Shown here one piece after another: positions 15,350 to 31,532 of a stretch of 64,000 nucleotides of DNA. The DNA lies in NCBI GenBank assembly GCA_964515055.1, contig CAZEUG010000002.1:38032-102031 (forward strand). Reading direction: 5' to 3'. The position numbers and the translations under genes are program-made. Under the pieces are notes generated by a model. It was not told the DNA's origin. It ran no database searches and saw only the letters and a program-made list of their open reading frames with translations. Origin of the DNA: an uncultured Oscillospiraceae bacterium (lineage in GTDB: Bacteria > Bacillota > Clostridia > Oscillospirales > QAMX01). Within the stretch, counting starts at the first letter, position 1. Every line of letters begins with the position of its first letter.

Positions 15350-16729
15350 TCATTTCTCTTGTATAGTGGTTGAACCGGCCAGCTGTGCCGCAACGCGGTT
15401 GACGTTGCCTGCACCGCAGGTCAGGATCAGGTCGCCCGGCTGTGCCATTGCGGCCAGGCAGACCGCAGCATCGTCCAGGGCGGGGATATATTGTGCGCCG
15501 GGAATCTCCGCCGTCAGGTCGGCAGAGGAAATCCCGAAGGTATTCTGTTCGCGTGCGGAATAAATATCCGTACAGACAACGACATCGGCCAGCCGCAGCA
15601 CCTCGCAGAAGCGATCCTTCAGTGCGACGGTTCTGGAATACGTATGCGGCTGGAACAGGCAGATGACCCGTTGGAAGCCGAGCGTTTTGGCGGTTTTCAG
15701 CGTGGTTTCCAGTTCGTCCGGATGGTGGGCGTAGTCATCCACCACGACGGCGCCGTTGCAGGTGCCGATGCGCTGGAAGCGGCGCAGCACGCCGGTATAG
15801 CTCTGGAGTCCGCGGGCAATGACATCCGGGGCGAAGCCGTAGCCGCGGAGTACGGCGGCGACAGCCAACGAATTGTCCAGGTTGTGCTGTCCGGGGACGG
15901 CCAGCTCGATTTCGCAGAGCGGCGTCCCGTTTTCGGTCAGGGTATAGGCCGCGCAGCCCTGCTGCATCCGAACAGCTTCCGCCCGGTATTGTCCGTCGCC
16001 GCCAAACGTCAGGATGCGGCGATTCAGACCGGTAACGGCGCGCATGGCGTTTTCATTGGCCGCATTCACAACGAGCAGCCCGTGCTCCGGTGTATGCTCA
16101 GCAAACACGCGAAACGCGCCGATGATCTCCTCGATTCCGGAATAATAGTCGAGATGATCGGGCTCAACATTCAAAATCACAGCCGTTTCCGGATACAGCT
16201 CGTGGAAGGAGCGGCAGTATTCGCACGACTCCGCAACGAACCAGGGGCTGTGACCCAGTGTATAGGTGCCGTGAATTTCCGGCAGCGGTGCGCCGAGGAA
16301 CGCAGTCGGCGACTGGTCATCCTGCAGCAGCACATGGGTCAGCATACCGGAAACCGTCGATTTTCCATGTGTGCCCGAAACGCCGATCGAATGCGGGTAT
16401 TCGCGCATGATCTGTCCGAGCACCTGCGGGCGCTCAAGGATGGGAATGCCGGCTGCCCGCGCATAGGCGATATCCGGTGAGGTGTCGGCAATGGCGGCGT
16501 TGCGGACGATGACTGCTGCGCCTGCGACATATTCCGGCCGGTGTCCGATGGCGACCGGGATGCCATGCTCGCGCAGCATGGCGGTATTCTCGGATTCGTC
16601 GCGGTCACTGCCGGTGATGTGGGCACCGCGCCGGGCAAGTTCCAGCGCAAGAGAGGACATCATGACGCCGCCGATTCCGATGAAGTGAATCCGTGCATGG
16701 TTTGCAACGGCCTGTTCAAGCTGTTTCAT
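15350..16729 (-). CDS. murC: UDP-N-acetylmuramate--L-alanine ligase
   Basis: IHFIGIGGVMMSSLA Rossmann N-terminus and GTHGKST P-loop; Mur ligase architecture. Confidence 0.92.
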   Translation of the reverse strand: MKQLEQAVANHARIHFIGIGGVMMSSLALELARRGAHITGSDRDESENTAMLREHGIPVAIGHRPEYVAGAAVIVRNAAIADTSPDIAYARAAGIPILERPQVLGQIMREYPHSIGVSGTHGKSTVSGMLTHVLLQDDQSPTAFLGAPLPEIHGTYTLGHSPWFVAESCEYCRSFHELYPETAVILNVEPDHLDYYSGIEEIIGAFRVFAEHTPEHGLLVVNAANENAMRAVTGLNRRILTFGGDGQYRAEAVRMQQGCAAYTLTENGTPLCEIELAVPGQHNLDNSLAVAAVLRGYGFAPDVIARGLQSYTGVLRRFQRIGTCNGAVVVDDYAHHPDELETTLKTAKTLGFQRVICLFQPHTYSRTVALKDRFCEVLRLADVVVCTDIYSAREQNTFGISSADLTAEIPGAQYIPALDDAAVCLAAMAQPGDLILTCGAGNVNRVAAQLAGSTTIQEK

Positions 16730-25541: not shown

Positions 25542-26543
25542 ATGAGTAAAATCAAGTATCTCTTTCAGCGGGTCTGTCGAATTGACTATGGGCGGTTGTT
25601 CCGCACCATTCGGCAGACATCAGACATTTCAGGGCGAAGCCGCATCGGAATCGCCTTTGATATGCTGCGCTGCGCCATTCGCTATACGGCTGCACCGGCC
25701 GACTACGCGTTGTTTGAGTTCTGGGCGCTGACACCTGCACAGCGGAAGACGTATGTCACCCGCGGGATCAACGACCGGCTCGTCAAAAAGTACAACGATC
25801 GGTCGCTCTGGCACATTTTTGACAACAAGGCGGAGTTCAACACCCGTTATGCGGCCTATGTCGGGCGCGACTGGATGCAGCTTGCACCCGACGGGTTTGA
25901 AGCGTTTGACGCGTTCTGTTCCCGCCATCCCTGCATCTTTTACAAGCCGCTCAGCCTCTCCTGCGGGTGGGGCATTGAGAAAATCGACGTGGCCTCCGTT
26001 CCGGATCGCCATGCGCTGTTTGAACGGCTGGTGCAGAAGGAAGGCGGCGGTCTGATCGAGGAGCAGATTGTGCAGCACCCGGAGATGAACCGGATGTTCC
26101 CCGGCTCCGTCAACACCATTCGCCTCGTCACCATCAACGACGGCCATGACGTCACCGTTGTCTTTTCGTTTCTGCGGGTGGGCAATGGGAAATTTGTGGA
26201 CAACCTGAACAGCGGTGGAATGGCCGCGCCCATTGACCCGGCCACCGGCGTTGTGACGCACCCCGCAGCCGACAAGGACTACAAGGCCTACGACTGCCAT
26301 CCGGCCACCGGGACGCCGTTTGTCGGCTTCCAGATTCCCCGGTTTGCCGAGGCCGTTGCACTCGTCCAGGAGGCGGCCACGCTGGAGCCGCGCATGGGCT
26401 ACATCGGGTGGGACATTGCCGTCACGCCGGACGGGCTCTGTCTGGTGGAGGCCAACAGCTTCCCCGGTCACGATATTCTTCAGCTGCCGCCGCACGTCCC
26501 GGACAAGATCGGTCTGATGAGCCGGATTGAGCGGTTTCTCTAA
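25542..26543 (+). CDS. ATP-grasp domain protein (sugar-transfer-associated ATP-grasp-like)
   Basis: 333 aa; C-terminal GWDIAVTPDGLCLVEANSFPG resembles the ATP-grasp Mg/ATP-binding end. Assignment by pattern only. Confidence 0.6.
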   Translation: MSKIKYLFQRVCRIDYGRLFRTIRQTSDISGRSRIGIAFDMLRCAIRYTAAPADYALFEFWALTPAQRKTYVTRGINDRLVKKYNDRSLWHIFDNKAEFNTRYAAYVGRDWMQLAPDGFEAFDAFCSRHPCIFYKPLSLSCGWGIEKIDVASVPDRHALFERLVQKEGGGLIEEQIVQHPEMNRMFPGSVNTIRLVTINDGHDVTVVFSFLRVGNGKFVDNLNSGGMAAPIDPATGVVTHPAADKDYKAYDCHPATGTPFVGFQIPRFAEAVALVQEAATLEPRMGYIGWDIAVTPDGLCLVEANSFPGHDILQLPPHVPDKIGLMSRIERFL

Positions 26544-26561: not shown

Positions 26562-26601
26562 ATCCGGTCTGACGGTTCAAACCGTCAGACCGGATTTTTT
26601 T
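26562..26601. terminator. Strong bidirectional intrinsic terminator
   Basis: 15-bp perfect stem ATCCGGTCTGACGGT/ACCGTCAGACCGGAT, 4-nt loop, T7 run, with an A-rich run upstream. Confidence 0.8.
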
Positions 26602-26616
26602 AGATGCAATTGATTT

Positions 26617-27354
26617 TCAGGCGTTTGCGCGTTTCAGAAGCTCCGACACCGTGATTTCATAGGCGCGGTCACTGTGCTCCGTTTCACAGGAGATGGAGAC
26701 GGTCTGGCCGGTTTTCCGCTCGATGAGCCATGCGGCCAGCCAGCGCTTCAGCCACGGGTTGCGCGCCAGCACCGGGCCGATGACATAGGTCGCCAGGACG
26801 TTGCCGGTTCGGATGCCTTCGTCCGGCGCTTCCGCGCCGTCTTCTGTCAGGATGCCGCCGGGGCCGAACCGTGCATGGAACAACGGCGCTGCGACGTGCT
26901 GCAAATACCCGCTCTTGTTGATGAAGCCGGCCAGCAGCTGCTCCGACATCGGTGATTCATAAAGGACGTCGCCGAGCTGACGGCCGTCTGTCCGGACTGC
27001 ATCGCAGTCGGTCAGACCCAGGCACGGCTGCGCTTCGCCTGACGGCAGCTGCAGCGTCCGTGCCGTCAGCTCTGCGGCAGAGCCTGTAAAGAGCATAGGC
27101 ACCCCGTCTGCGGCGGCGCTTTGGAGCTCTGCCGCGTATGGCAGCAGTGCGCGCCGCGCCAGCTCCAGCTTGCGCTCCGTACCCGCGCCCGCATACACAA
27201 AATCCACATGGTTCAGGTGGAGTGTCTCCCCCATCGCAACGGTTTCCACATCGACCGCATGGCCAGCAGCCTGCAGCGTCCGCTGCAGCACGAGCAGGTT
27301 GGCAGCTTCGCCGTACAGGTTCAGGAGTTCCGGATACAGGTGGACAATCTTCAT
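26617..27354 (-). CDS. gatD: GatD-like CobQ-type glutamine amidotransferase subunit (catalytic residues apparently substituted)
   Basis: 245 aa. MKIVHLYPELLNLYGE start, translationally coupled to murT (TGATG overlap). See finding on loss of Cys/His. Confidence 0.75.
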   Translation of the reverse strand: MKIVHLYPELLNLYGEAANLLVLQRTLQAAGHAVDVETVAMGETLHLNHVDFVYAGAGTERKLELARRALLPYAAELQSAAADGVPMLFTGSAAELTARTLQLPSGEAQPCLGLTDCDAVRTDGRQLGDVLYESPMSEQLLAGFINKSGYLQHVAAPLFHARFGPGGILTEDGAEAPDEGIRTGNVLATYVIGPVLARNPWLKRWLAAWLIERKTGQTVSISCETEHSDRAYEITVSELLKRANA

Positions 27355-28688
27355 CAGAGGTTCTCCTTTCTTTCGACGGCGTCCGACGGCAGGCGTGACA
27401 GGAATTTGTCGCGGTCGGAGAAGCAGGTGATGACGTACAGATCCTGCTGCTCCGCGAATACAGTGGACAACTCGTCCAGCGTCGGCAGCAGATGGATTTT
27501 TTCGGACGGGATGTCGGTATAGTCGAGGCGCGTGGCCAGGTCATACCGATACGTTCCGGCGAGGTAGATGTTCCGGATGGACGGATGGTTCAACCGATCA
27601 AAGGTGATATCCCAGAGCCAGGACGTCTCCCCGGTGAAATATTTGCGGCTGATGGCGTCAACAATCAGCAGCACATCGCCGCCGTTCCGGACGGCCAGGT
27701 CAATCGACTGGTCGTAGGAGGTGGAATTTTCATGTTTGGAGGTCAGCAGCGCGATTTTCCGGCCATTCTGCATCCAGCTGCGGGTGCGGCCGTTTTTGAA
27801 AATGTAATCGCTGATCGTCTCACCAATCAGCGCCGGTTGAACGCCCAGCTCGGCCGCCACGGCATATGCCGCCAGCATATTGTACAGCTGGTACAGCACG
27901 CGCAGATTCGTATGCAGTGCGGTTTCGCCGTTGACCGTCAGGGTGCCGTTGTCGAGATCGGCTGATGTAATGGCATAGTCGCAGTCCTGCCGGTGATAGC
28001 CGCAGGCATCGCAGCGGTAGAGGCCGAAGCCCGGCCGATGGCTGTCGGTAAAGGTCAGCGGTGCGCCACATTTGGGGCAATAGACCGCATCCTGATACCG
28101 GGCGGGCTGTTCCGGCAGACCGGCGGACGCATTGATGCCGAACCATTTGACATCGGCGACCTCTTCTGCCAGCAGGGAGACCAGCGGGTCGTCGGCGTTC
28201 AGAATCAGCTTCATGTTCGGTTGGACGGCTTCACGGATTCGCTGCCAGATGAATTCCGGATGGCCGTTTCGCGTCATCTGGTCGCGGTAGAGGTTCAGCA
28301 CGGCGAAATGCGTGGGCTGCATATAGCGGAAGGTGTGCCGCGCATACTGTTCATCCGATTCCATGACGATCACGTCACTTTTTACGCGACCTGTCCAGGT
28401 GGCGTTCCGAATAAGCATCGTCGCGATGCCCTCGATCTGGTTGGAGCCTTCGCGGTTCCAGCAGACGTGCTTCCCGGCGCGCTCCAGAATCCGGACGATC
28501 ATTTCAACGGTTGAGGTTTTGCCGTTGGAGCCAGTTACTGCGACGACATACGTTGGAAGCTGAATGCGGGCAATGATGTCGGGGCAGATTTTCAGAGCCA
28601 GCTGACCGGGCTTGGACGAGCCTTTTTTCACGATGCGTCCGGCCAGCGCCGCCAGCTTACAGACCATGATGGCAAGGAATTTTCTCAT
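27354..28688 (-). CDS. murT: Lipid II isoglutaminyl synthase subunit MurT (Mur ligase family)
   Basis: VTGSNGKTST P-loop, Cys4 ribbon CPKCG...CDACG and a DUF1727-like C-terminus. ATGA overlap with ribF. Confidence 0.85.
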   Translation of the reverse strand: MRKFLAIMVCKLAALAGRIVKKGSSKPGQLALKICPDIIARIQLPTYVVAVTGSNGKTSTVEMIVRILERAGKHVCWNREGSNQIEGIATMLIRNATWTGRVKSDVIVMESDEQYARHTFRYMQPTHFAVLNLYRDQMTRNGHPEFIWQRIREAVQPNMKLILNADDPLVSLLAEEVADVKWFGINASAGLPEQPARYQDAVYCPKCGAPLTFTDSHRPGFGLYRCDACGYHRQDCDYAITSADLDNGTLTVNGETALHTNLRVLYQLYNMLAAYAVAAELGVQPALIGETISDYIFKNGRTRSWMQNGRKIALLTSKHENSTSYDQSIDLAVRNGGDVLLIVDAISRKYFTGETSWLWDITFDRLNHPSIRNIYLAGTYRYDLATRLDYTDIPSEKIHLLPTLDELSTVFAEQQDLYVITCFSDRDKFLSRLPSDAVERKENL

Positions 28689-29593
28689 ACGCTCTCCTCC
28701 GTGTCGAGTTCCGGAATCGGAACCTGTTTCGCTTCGTCAATATCTGCTGCAATCTGCCGAACCAGAGCGTCCGCATTCGCGAAGCGCTGCTCCGGGCGCA
28801 GGAATGCATACAGGGCAAGGACAGCCGCCTCGCCGTAGGTCGGTTCTCCGGAATAGGAAAGCAGGTGCGTTTCGCAGTCATAGATGCCGTCCTGATAGAA
28901 TGTCGGCCGGGTGCCAAAATTGGTGATGGAGCGGTATGTTCTGCCGCGCAGGTGGACAGATGATGCATACACGCCGGCACGCGGGCGCAGCAGCTCCTCC
29001 GGCAACGTCAGGTTCATGGTGGCAAAGCCCAGCTGTTGGCCGCGGCCATCGCCCGGAACCGCCTGTCCGGCCAGCAGGTACGGATGTCCCAGCAGTCGAT
29101 TGGCTTCCGACAGCCGCCCGGCCTCCATGCAGGCGCGGATGCGCGTGGAGCTGATGACGCCGCCGGCTTCACAGACGGCCTCCACCGTATCAACTGGGAG
29201 CTGTTGGCGCAGGCGCTCCGGGTTGCCGATGCCGCCGCTGCCGAATCGGAAGCTACTGCCACAGACGGCATGGGTCACCTTCAGGCGGCCGATCAGCGTT
29301 TCCGTGGCGAACACATCCCAAGGCGTCGCCTGCATGGATGCGTCAAAGGGCAATTCGATCAGCTCGACGCCGGGAAAGAGCCGGTTCAGCAGCAGTGCCC
29401 TGGTCTGTCGATCGGACAGTAATCGCACGTTCTCCTGCCGGACGGCATTTTTGGGGCGGCGGTCAAACGTGATGACGCACGGCGTTTTGCCGGTTTTCAT
29501 CGCAAGCTCCGCTGCACGTCGAATCACCGCCTGGTGGCCGCGGTGCAGCCCATCAAAAAAGCCGAGCGCCGCGACACGTCCCTGTTCTGGCAT
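28685..29593 (-). CDS. ribF: Bifunctional riboflavin kinase / FMN adenylyltransferase
   Basis: ALGFFDGLHRGHQAV nucleotidyltransferase motif; C-terminal riboflavin kinase (TNFGTRPTF, ETHLL). Start re-picked at MPEQGRV after GGGGAGGA. Confidence 0.9.
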   Translation of the reverse strand: MPEQGRVAALGFFDGLHRGHQAVIRRAAELAMKTGKTPCVITFDRRPKNAVRQENVRLLSDRQTRALLLNRLFPGVELIELPFDASMQATPWDVFATETLIGRLKVTHAVCGSSFRFGSGGIGNPERLRQQLPVDTVEAVCEAGGVISSTRIRACMEAGRLSEANRLLGHPYLLAGQAVPGDGRGQQLGFATMNLTLPEELLRPRAGVYASSVHLRGRTYRSITNFGTRPTFYQDGIYDCETHLLSYSGEPTYGEAAVLALYAFLRPEQRFANADALVRQIAADIDEAKQVPIPELDTEESV

Positions 29594-29610
29594 GATATTC
29601 CTCCCCGCCG

Positions 29611-30540
29611 TCAATCGTTTGATTCGTTTTGTCCGAAAAAGCGTTTTTCAATGAGAACCCGGCCGCTTTCCACCGAGCCAACGGCGAGAAATTCACCGGA
29701 TTCGCCATAAAAGCGCCGAGCCGCCGTCTGCGGTTCCGCACCGTCTGCCACGCATTCTGTCGGAATGTCGAGGCCGGTTTTCAGGTACCGCTCTCCCAGT
29801 GCGTTCAGGACGGCGCGTGGGCGATCCGCAAACACGTCATCAATCGGCCTCACAAAGCCGTAATCCCCGGCGGCCACGTGTGCTTCCAGCTGTTCGAGCG
29901 TCAGCGCATCCCGGATGGAAAAGCGGCCGACTGCCGTCCGGCGCAGTGAGGCCATGGTGCCGTACACGTTCAGCGCCCGGCCGATATCGCGGCACAGCGA
30001 CCGGATATACGTCCCCTTGGAGCAGGCGACGCGGAGGGTGAACCGCTGGTTGGCCTCATCGGCGCGGAGCAGCTCCAGCGAATGAATGACGATCTGTCTC
30101 GGCGTCGGCTCCACTTCCTTCCCGGCGCGGGCGAGCTCATACATTTTTCGGCCGCCGATTTTAATGGCAGAGTAGATGGGTGGAATCTGCTCCAGCGAGC
30201 CGGTAAACTGTGGGAGCAGGGCGGCCACCTCTGCCGCTGTGCAGCGCGACTCCGAAGATGCGGTTACGGTACCCGTGGTATCCCCGGTATCCGTTTCTTC
30301 GCCCAGCTGCAGCTCGGCGAGATATTCCTTATCGCAGCCGGTCACATAGGCGCAGACCTTGGTTGCGCGGCCAAAGCAGATCAGGTTCAGTCCGGTCGCG
30401 ATCGGGTCGAGTGTCCCCGTGTGACCGGCAGATTTGACGCCGTAGATTCGTTTGAAGCGGGAAACGAGTGCCTGTGACGACAGCCCCTGTGGCTTATCGG
30501 CCAGGAACATACCGCTGACTGGTTTTTGCTGTTGTTCCAT
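29611..30540 (-). CDS. truB: tRNA pseudouridine(55) synthase
   Basis: GHTGTLDPIATG catalytic Asp motif and a PUA-less TruB layout. Start uncertain (30540 or 30510). Confidence 0.9.
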   Translation of the reverse strand: MEQQQKPVSGMFLADKPQGLSSQALVSRFKRIYGVKSAGHTGTLDPIATGLNLICFGRATKVCAYVTGCDKEYLAELQLGEETDTGDTTGTVTASSESRCTAAEVAALLPQFTGSLEQIPPIYSAIKIGGRKMYELARAGKEVEPTPRQIVIHSLELLRADEANQRFTLRVACSKGTYIRSLCRDIGRALNVYGTMASLRRTAVGRFSIRDALTLEQLEAHVAAGDYGFVRPIDDVFADRPRAVLNALGERYLKTGLDIPTECVADGAEPQTAARRFYGESGEFLAVGSVESGRVLIEKRFFGQNESND

Positions 30541-30560
30541 AGACGAAAGACCCGTTCCTC

Positions 30561-31532
30561 TCATGCGTTGCAGTCGGGCAGACTGTCGGCAATTTTCCGG
30601 CAGACCGCTTCCACCGCGTCCTTCGGTGACATTGGCAGGCTGCATCCGGCGGCACCGACATGGCCGCCGCCGCCAAATGCGGCGCAGACAGCCGACGCAT
30701 CCACCGCACCGTTCGTCCGGACGGAGATTTTCGTCGTGCCGTCCGGCTGTTCATAGGCGGAAACACCGGCCAGGACGCCCTCGATTTTTCTGGGGAGGGA
30801 GGAGAGGTCATCCAGGTCATCCTCCGTTGCGCCCGTCTCACGGCGCATCTGCTGAGTGACCGTGATGGCGGCAATGCGGTCATTGGCGAAAAACCGCATT
30901 TCCTTATAGATGATCCGTTCGATTTCGATGCGCGCACGGCGTTTTTTCTCAAAAAACTCGAGATTCAGTGCGGCCAGATCAATCCCTTCCCGGAGGCAGG
31001 ATGCCGCGATTTCATGCGTTTGCGCCGTGGTATTGGCAAACAGAAAGCAGCCGGTATCCGTGGCCAGGGCAATGTACAGCAGGGTGGCCAGTTCCCGATC
31101 CATCGGGAGCTGCATCGCCTGAATCAGGCCGAAAATGAGTTCGCCCGTGGCGGCCGCAGACGGGTCGTCGATTTTGGCGACACGCGCCGCCATGGTGTTG
31201 GCCATATGGTGGTCAATGATGTAGTCGATCCGGTCGGCATATTCCCGCGCCGGGGCGCTCAGCTGGGATTCGGACGCGACATCGACCGTCACCACGGCAT
31301 ACGCCTGATCGTCCTCCGGCAGACCGGCATACGGTGTCAGATAGTTCTTCAGGCGATCCGTGATTTCCGGATTCCAGCAAATCATGGCACGCTTGCCGAG
31401 TCGGCGCAGAGCAAGACAGAGTGCCGCAGCGGAGCAGACCGTATCGCCGTCCGGTCTGCGATGTGTCAGAATCAGAAATTGATCATCGGCTTTCATCTGC
31501 TGTGCCATGCTGCACAGGTTCGCCTTATCCAT
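30561..31532 (-). CDS. nrnA: DHH/DHHA1 phosphoesterase (NrnA-type oligoribonuclease/pAp phosphatase)
   Basis: HRRPDGDTVCS (DHH motif I-II), DHH at IIDHHM, GGGGH in the DHHA1 domain. Confidence 0.8.
   Translation of the reverse strand: MDKANLCSMAQQMKADDQFLILTHRRPDGDTVCSAAALCLALRRLGKRAMICWNPEITDRLKNYLTPYAGLPEDDQAYAVVTVDVASESQLSAPAREYADRIDYIIDHHMANTMAARVAKIDDPSAAATGELIFGLIQAMQLPMDRELATLLYIALATDTGCFLFANTTAQTHEIAASCLREGIDLAALNLEFFEKKRRARIEIERIIYKEMRFFANDRIAAITVTQQMRRETGATEDDLDDLSSLPRKIEGVLAGVSAYEQPDGTTKISVRTNGAVDASAVCAAFGGGGHVGAAGCSLPMSPKDAVEAVCRKIADSLPDCNA

Follow-up and report, generated by a model that had tools for sequence, protein, structure and literature searches.

The genes murT and gatD lie next to each other on the minus strand of a 64,000-nucleotide stretch of contig CAZEUG010000002.1 from an uncultured Oscillospiraceae bacterium; this whole stretch is referred to below as the window. 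The product of positions 26617..27354, a GatD-like subunit of 245 amino acids, is confirmed by sequence alignments and a structural model to be a full-length, well-folded GatD homologue that lacks both catalytic residues of the glutaminase. Its partner, encoded at 27354..28688, is a predicted MurT-like ligase of 444 amino acids which uses adenosine triphosphate (ATP). The reading favoured here, to which we assign a probability of roughly 0.45, is that the two proteins would constitute an active ATP-dependent lipid II ligase in which GatD acts as a non-catalytic scaffold, with free ammonia as the most likely nucleophile. This reading is drawn from sequence comparison, structure prediction and the analysis of selection on the two genes.

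The GatD-like protein is recognisable as a member of its superfamily by several independent routes. The PF07685 profile (GATase_3) covers the protein as a whole, from residue 2 to residue 199, with 34.5 bits against a cut-off of 27. In a phmmer search of the sequences in PDB, it aligned over its full length with S. aureus GatD (5n9m/6gs2) at an E-value of 6e-19, as well as with the GatD chains of S. pneumoniae and S. pyogenes. An AlphaFold2 (AF2) model built on 126 homologues reached a mean predicted local distance difference test (pLDDT) score of 96.5 and a predicted template-modelling (TM) score of 0.93, and the nine best Foldseek matches of this model were all GatD chains, with a TM-score of 0.88 to 6gs2_A. 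Taken together, the profile, the model and the structural matches reveal the class I (CobB/CobQ-type) glutamine amidotransferase fold. On the other hand, the scores against the NCBIfam GatD equivalogs NF052463 and NF045636 were far below their cut-offs (78.8 versus 450 and 66.9 versus 400, respectively).

Both catalytic positions are altered in regions where the phmmer alignment contains no gaps. The segment FTGSAAELT is placed over TICGGYQFL, so that the nucleophile Cys94 of S. aureus corresponds to Gly91, while TYVIGPV is placed over TYLHGPI, so that the catalytic His189 of the HGP motif corresponds to Ile192 in IGP. When 250 homologues were independently aligned with MAFFT, Gly91 and Ile192 fell into the two columns in which canonical members invariably carry Cys and His, and in the AF2 model Gly91 is located at the nucleophile elbow, which is the junction between strand 87–90 and helix 91–97. 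The original prediction had proposed precisely these two replacements on the basis of a gap-free match to the S. aureus sequence; the phmmer alignment turned out to be identical to that match, and the HMMER, MAFFT and model-based alignments all bear the substitutions out, with neither Cys nor His at the catalytic positions when the protein is aligned to PF07685 and to the PDB GatD chains. The possibility of a Cys displaced by misalignment, such as C111 in QPCLGL, was considered and rejected, as this column holds Gly in 44% and Ala in 21% of the related proteins with the same losses and no gaps occur nearby. Moreover, no column of the MAFFT alignment contains a conserved Cys across this group, which is called the dead GatD clade below.

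The losses extend beyond the two catalytic residues. In the window protein, Gln95 is replaced by Glu, Glu145 by Ile and His147 by Lys, so that the canonical ENH motif reads INK, and the oxyanion GGG has become GAG through replacement of its middle Gly by Ala. These changes bear on the idea that the protein is a cryptic glutaminase, in which Thr90, Ser92 or His5 would serve as an unconventional nucleophile or base. Such a role could account for the conservation of Thr90 (84%), Thr59 (90%) and His5 (80%) in the dead clade. Nevertheless, the elbow position is Gly in essentially all dead members, the residue in the His189 column varies and is aliphatic (I, L, T, V, S), and Gln95, Glu145, His147 and the middle oxyanion Gly have disappeared as well. 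Thr90, for its part, occupies a buried Val/Ile position at the end of a strand in the AF2 model, and glutamine no longer supports activity in the S. aureus variants C94S and C94G (PMC6113224, PMC3266927). A cryptic glutaminase is thus very improbable.

What the protein has kept is equally informative. Arg125 (R128 in S. aureus), Asn146 and the G193-P194 pair are all present, as is the MurT-contact motif Y14-G15-x-x-A18-N19. The same elements recur throughout the dead clade. Among the 250 full-length homologues, which were collected from two protein libraries, 205 carry Gly at the Cys column and 40 are canonical; the His column of the 205, which represent clusters at 50% identity, contains I, L, T, V, S or A. 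Within this set, 26 positions are invariant or nearly so, including the glutamine-capturing Arg125 (R128/R142), Asn146, the Y-G-x-x-G/A-N loop that touches MurT, and the G-P following the His position.

The distribution of such pairs among genomes shows that the window is by no means an isolated case. In the window's GTDB family, MurT was found in 19 of 35 genomes with a patchy distribution by genus, and in a sample of the order it was found in 89 of 401. All these loci were read, revealing 16 canonical and 73 dead-GatD pairs, with essentially one MurT/GatD pair per genome; hence, the substitution is clade-wide. The canonical state is defined by a GatD containing both Cys and His together with a MurT containing N-D-x-x-A-D-G-x-D-[IV]-S-W, and across the 89 MurT-bearing genomes the dead status of GatD co-varies perfectly with a remodelled form of this MurT motif. 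On the MurT tree, which like the other trees mentioned here comes from a quick search, a single change between the canonical and dead states is sufficient, and the branch in question has a support of 98 in the Shimodaira–Hasegawa-like approximate likelihood ratio test (SH-aLRT).

The gene that has undergone these losses is still maintained. The ratio of nonsynonymous to synonymous substitution rates (dN/dS) between the window and its closest relative, at a synonymous divergence (dS) of 0.18, is 0.15 for GatD and 0.06 for MurT, and the corresponding values for a relative at a dS of 0.9 are 0.31 and 0.15; for more distant pairs dS is saturated. Both genes are under purifying selection. In pairs of the window's own subfamily, designated type A, GatD accumulates about twice as many amino acid changes as MurT, whereas in canonical pairs this ratio is about 1.1. 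The constraint on the dead GatD is therefore relaxed yet clearly present, and its roughly twofold faster evolution fits a scaffold role.

These data also decide the question of decay, that is, whether the gatD-like gene is merely a functionless remnant. The missing catalytic residues and the evolution faster than that of the partner gene would be expected of a remnant. However, an unbroken reading frame is found in each of the 85 dead pairs examined, dN/dS is 0.07–0.3, the nearly invariant positions described above persist across the 205 clusters, and both the translational coupling to murT and a confidently predicted fold have been retained. Decay is already contradicted by the conservation data and is hardly credible. 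Furthermore, profile searches of the genome, which is 98% complete, found no second MurT, the only MurT_C match being the window gene, and no second GatD, the only other GATase_3 match being hisH. The residue losses, the clade-wide purifying selection and the absence of another copy jointly support the view, put forward in the original prediction, that this GatD is a pseudo-glutaminase, and they agree with its further suggestion that MurT may rely on free ammonia or some other donor, or that the pair has diverged in function.

The MurT partner presents a different picture, in which an intact ligase core is combined with several switched motifs. The 444-residue protein matches both Mur_ligase_M (PF08245) and MurT_C (PF08353) and aligns with 6gs2_B at an E-value of 1e-48, and its AF2 model (pLDDT 89) has MurT chains as the top structural matches. 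Its scores against the NCBIfam MurT equivalogs NF052464 and NF045635 are 193.9 and 185 bits, compared with a cut-off of 800. The residues with which a Mur ligase works, whose roles are taken from PMC6085368, are all in place: the P-loop GSNGKT (53–58), Glu110 (the Mg ligand E108 of S. aureus), Asn83 (S. pneumoniae Asn85, which contacts the acceptor carboxylate), Asp112-Glu113, Arg135-Asp136-Gln137, Arg140, Asn270, the hinge Arg301, and the complete Cys4 ribbon (C204/C207/C226/C229). Within type A, the P-loop Lys and Thr, Asn83, Glu110, Asp112-Glu113, Arg135, Asp136, Arg140, Asn270, Arg301 and the Cys4 ribbon are invariant.

This conservation is relevant to a non-enzymatic explanation, according to which the complex would have ceased to modify the wall and would serve in regulation or sequestration by binding either lipid II or a nucleotide. 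Related pairs of subfamily E provide some encouragement for it, since their MurT proteins have also lost Asn83, Glu113, Arg135-Asp136 and Arg301. The window MurT, however, retains every catalytic residue of the ligase at invariant positions, and MurT is under strong selection (dN/dS 0.06–0.15). For the window pair a purely binding role is consequently improbable. The type E pairs themselves (L021, L022 and L026) occur in one genus (g10) of the window's GTDB family. Their GatD lacks Cys and His, and their MurT has a P-loop reading GSVGKS or GSDGKS in addition to the missing residues listed above; to judge from these residues, the pairs look dead in both halves, and their open reading frames are still intact.

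The description of MurT as canonical in the original prediction does not fully hold. The Asp that completes the glutaminase site (D349 in S. aureus, D355 in S. pneumoniae), which is present in 100% of canonical pairs, is replaced by Glu354 within TGETSW, a conservative change. The DNAAD-type motif (D-[NR]-x-A-D-G) is absent, with SRKYF (347–351) in its place. These differences co-vary strictly with the dead GatD. In addition, the KNP loop has become KHENS (318–322), and in the mobile loop Asp139 is replaced by Thr and Glu143 by His. None of this is casual variation within type A: Ser347-Arg348-Lys349-Tyr350 are invariant, and KHENS, D139T and E143H are invariant over 65 sequences with identities down to 50%. 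An adaptation of the motif to a stem peptide with Lys rather than meso-diaminopimelic acid (meso-DAP) was considered as the cause of the switch and rejected. MurE with DNPR was found in the window genome and, by a regular-expression search, in four canonical-pair genomes, a fifth giving no match. Since this form of MurE, which is the meso-DAP type, accompanies both types of pair, the MurT motif switch is not a stem-peptide adaptation.

Based on these features, the murT-gatD pair may be regarded as a derived lipid II modifying complex, the MurT half of which would still be an ATP-dependent Mur-type ligase. In the proposed mechanism, MurT would phosphorylate a carboxylate of the stem peptide, most likely the alpha-carboxyl of D-isoglutamate on lipid II with a meso-DAP-type peptide. 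GatD would be retained as an obligatory but non-catalytic partner that holds the C-terminal domain of MurT and forms the entrance for the nucleophile. As the GatD half is predicted to be unable to hydrolyse glutamine, the nitrogen would not come from glutamine; instead, free ammonia, in which the gut is rich, would pass into the complex by way of what is left of the glutaminase pocket and an acidic MurT gate, yielding D-isoglutamine. We infer the formation of a complex, lipid II as its acceptor and ammonia as its nucleophile.

Two precedents make ammonia-dependent amidation with a scaffold GatD the simplest reading. In S. aureus, MurT alone is inactive, and MurT combined with GatD-C94G loses glutamine-dependent amidation but keeps amidation dependent on NH3 at pH 8.5 (PMC3266927). 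Similarly, carbamoyl phosphate synthetase I (CPS1) retains a dead glutamine amidotransferase domain, in which Cys is replaced by Ser, and uses free ammonia (PMC4655335). A physical association between the two window proteins is supported by three observations. First, MurT Trp359 and GatD Ala/Gly18, the equivalents of the essential Trp360-Gly34 contact between MurT and GatD (PMC6085368), are both kept. Second, the 'negative gate' of MurT is still acidic (D200, E354, D360). Third, a metagenome protein of 435 amino acids, P0159, consists of a type A MurT C-terminal segment, from DSISRKYYTSETSWLWD, fused to a dead GatD. The linker of P0159 is rich in Gly, Ser and Ala, and the protein is truncated at its N-terminus. 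No full-length fusion of MurT with a dead GatD was found, the other two fusions, P0247 and P0266, being canonical.

Several points weigh against the ammonia-dependent scheme. The S. aureus enzyme accepted NH3 only at pH 8.5 and failed to do so at pH 7.5 (PMC3266927), which means that an unadapted enzyme would perform poorly in the cytoplasm. Ammonia alone offers no obvious reason for the switches to SRKY, KHENS, D139T and E143H, nor does it obviously explain why other dead subfamilies appear to have different and equally fixed MurT motifs. Moreover, GatD Arg125, the equivalent of the glutamine-capturing Arg128/142, is 96% conserved, and the new pocket residues Thr59-Glu60, Asn92 and Glu95 are fixed; judged by its residues, the conserved GatD pocket looks like a ligand site and not like a relic.

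Once the remodelling of the MurT motifs is taken into account, ammonia has little advantage over another amine or an amino acid. Under such a nucleophile switch, which is a serious possibility that falls short of even odds, type A MurT would add an amino acid, an amino-acid amide or an amine to the alpha-carboxyl of D-isoglutamate in the lipid-linked precursor or to the carboxyl of meso-DAP. The dead GatD pocket and the SRKY loop of MurT together would form the proposed binding site, and the ordinary mode of a Mur ligase would have been regained. In MurE, the D(D,N)P(N,A)/DNPR motif recognises the incoming diamino acid, and the MurT DNAAD motif occupies the equivalent position (PMC6113224). 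At this very position type A carries its invariant Ser-Arg-Lys-Tyr, a change from acidic to basic and aromatic character. The invariance of KHENS, D139T and E143H, the persistence of Arg125 despite lost catalysis and the failure of Lys versus DAP to explain the motif change all point in the same direction, and the fixed MurT motifs with matched GatD residues in at least six dead subfamilies form a specificity-determining pattern. Substituents of D-Glu such as glycine, amides and B-type bridges exist in nature. Groups other than NH2 also occur there naturally, for example polyamines in Negativicutes (PMC12826042).

Against the switch stand four observations. A survey of 53 loci with flanks of 4 kb showed no conserved neighbour that could supply an amino acid, for example a racemase; the MurT gate that faces GatD stays acidic, as in an ammonia-channelling enzyme; the rate at which GatD evolves, twice that of MurT, is higher than a subunit forming a specificity pocket would lead one to expect; and no unusual D-Glu substituent for Oscillospiraceae was reported in the literature searched. 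In its narrower form, in which type A MurT with dead GatD is a ligase joining an amino acid or amine to the alpha-carboxyl of D-isoglutamate on lipid II, the proposal is tentatively entertained. If true, it would mean that abundant gut Oscillospiraceae and Ruminococcus carry an undescribed peptidoglycan modification.

The dead pairs divide into at least six deep subfamilies; within each of them the MurT loop is fixed in a form of its own, and the residues of the GatD pocket match it. The MurT loop reads SRKY[FY]T[GS]E in subfamily A, to which the window pair belongs, SRKYxAND in subfamily A', xSENxxW in subfamily B, xRDxxW in subfamily C and YYTNT in subfamily D. On the GatD side, N146 is replaced by Ser in type B, and R125 is replaced by Val or Ile in types C and D. 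Subfamily E comprises L021, L022 and L026, in which MurT is degraded too, and subfamily F, which has an acidic type of MurT loop, occurs outside the window's class. Additional dead-GatD subfamilies beyond this class were seen in families f57 and f58 of a phylum-level sample (L104–L109); in one of them, His is kept while Cys is lost (TGSS...HGP), and the MurT loop is the acidic run DDEDDEEEITFIY. Names on related records include Oscillospiraceae, Ruminococcus, Oscillibacter, Acutalibacteraceae, and metagenome-assembled genomes of Clostridia and Bacilli.

The loss of glutaminase residues is not a single historical event. The phylum-level sample is mostly canonical but also contains independent, younger losses, and at least four changes are required on a concatenated tree from which the trait columns had been removed. 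Glutaminase loss arose independently at least 3–4 times. For instance, in L114 and L115 the GatD Cys is replaced by Gly or Ser and the His by Gln, the MurT motif remains canonical, and the dN/dS between the two is 0.14 for GatD and 0.13 for MurT. A canonical MurT motif combined with such low ratios indicates that a glutamine-independent mode is viable in nature. Together with L112, these loci from other families of the phylum show Cys replaced by Gly, Ser or Ala and His by Gln with MurT D-x-x-A-D-G-x-D preserved, and their residues make them the cleanest natural candidates for a purely ammonia-dependent MurT/GatD.

The genomic setting of the window pair is simple. The stop codon of murT (TGA, 27356–27354) and the start codon of gatD (ATG, 27354–27352) share one base in the sequence TGATG, and an AAGGAG sequence (27368–27363) lies 8 nt upstream, so that a translational coupling element spans 27352..27368 on the minus strand when the sequence is read directly. 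This agrees with the coupling noted in the original prediction. Upstream in the same direction, at 28685..30645, are truB (29611–30645) and ribF (28685–29614). The genes ribF and murT overlap in ATGA, which holds the stop of the former and the start of the latter, and this identifies murT-gatD as the tail of a housekeeping operon; a truB-ribF operon is an unusual location for a wall-modifying enzyme. A promoter-like site in the 3' end of ribF (28707–28679) was rejected because it is at chance level (1 found, 0.9 expected). The operon is closed by an intrinsic terminator at 26562..26595 on the minus strand, whose 15-bp stem includes 9 GC pairs and leads into CTGTTTTTGT. This terminator is bidirectional and shared with a convergent gene (25542–26543, plus strand), which encodes a 333-residue 'sugar-transfer associated ATP-grasp' protein (PF14397, E-value 4e-48). 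The ATP-grasp gene adjoins the pair only within the window's genus (L003, L015, L018, L020). ATP-grasp enzymes also ligate amino acids; a link between this neighbour and wall modification is possible but unsupported. The genes murT and gatD are adjacent in all loci where both were recovered, and no conserved third gene accompanies them in the 53 loci with 4-kb flanks.

Elsewhere in the window, at about 15404–16186 on the minus strand, another open frame of the Mur-ligase family (493 amino acids) gives a weak match to the murE model (66 bits) and is presumably one of murC, murD and murF. Regarding expression, a relative with 93–95% identity has its gatD and murT partly covered by contigs from the RNA libraries (metatranscriptomes) of a single study; these libraries may contain DNA, and the contigs are a weak hint that the genes of this relative are transcribed.

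In the literature, MurT/GatD is regarded as a uniform, glutamine-dependent and often essential system and as a drug target. The operon is treated as uniform in two structural papers, in the survey in PMC6085368 and in the phylogeny in PMC11915815, and 'murTgatD' was counted as widespread in Clostridia with the dead form not separated (PMC6085368). In the order sample, by contrast, the pair is predicted to be unable to use glutamine in four out of every five genomes that have MurT. No description of the dead-GatD family was found in the literature searched, and nothing relevant was found there on MurT in B-type peptidoglycan or in Ruminococcus muropeptide data. Public records name the dead GatD proteins 'glutamine amidotransferase', which is a systematic annotation error.

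If the complex uses ammonia, it would be a natural bacterial counterpart of CPS1, with wall amidation tied to ambient ammonia in the gut. If it adds another group, enzymes would be identified for a class of stem-peptide modifications to which, to our knowledge, no genes have been assigned. Either outcome bears on immune signalling by dominant gut commensals, because host sensing is influenced by the form in which D-Glu occurs at position 2. Amidation of D-Glu shapes the NOD2 ligand. It also masks the NOD1 ligand (PMC11132681).

Comparison with known systems places the pair between several better-characterised enzymes. Like dead GatD, CPS1 contains a class I glutamine amidotransferase module without the catalytic Cys, structurally retained beside a synthetase that runs on free ammonia (PMC4655335), and the window pair displays the same traits: a replaced Cys, a GatD module kept under selection and an intact synthetase half. 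CPS1 differs in being a fused eukaryotic polypeptide built on an ATP-grasp enzyme rather than a Mur ligase, and the analogy is one of evolutionary route, not of functional homology. MurE and MurF share the fold of their central and C-terminal domains with MurT (Foldseek matches 4qf5 and 4c12), and the remodelled motif of type A MurT lies at the site where MurE DNPR recognises the incoming amino acid. Unlike these ligases, MurT has no UDP-binding (uridine diphosphate) N-terminal domain, acts on lipid-linked substrates and requires a GatD-type partner. The S. aureus GatD-C94G/MurT mutant has the identical replacement of Cys by Gly and amidates lipid II with NH3 while GatD is physically needed (PMC3266927). 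It was, however, made in the laboratory by a single substitution and still has His189 and an unaltered MurT; in the natural family, the His is gone as well and MurT has been remodelled.

The closest known system is the MurT/GatD isoglutaminyl synthase (EC 6.3.5.13) of S. aureus (6gs2, 6h5e, 5n9m), S. pneumoniae (6fqb) and S. pyogenes (9sq9). The window pair has in common with it two coupled genes, the GatD fold, MurT chains as the best matches of its MurT model, the MurT P-loop, Mg and acceptor residues, the Cys4 ribbon, the SWxWD contact helix and the YGxxGN loop of GatD. It departs from this enzyme in GatD by Cys94Gly, His189Ile, GGG to GAG, Q95 to E and ENH to INK, and in MurT by Asp349 to Glu, DNAAD to SRKYF, KNP to KHENS, D139 to T and E143 to H. 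With these residues, the window complex is predicted to be unable to hydrolyse glutamine. As judged from sequence and models, it is a relative of MurT/GatD by fold, gene order and ligase residues, and by four defining features (Cys, His, the MurT Asp and DNAAD) together with the equivalog scores it is a non-member of the glutamine-hydrolysing family.

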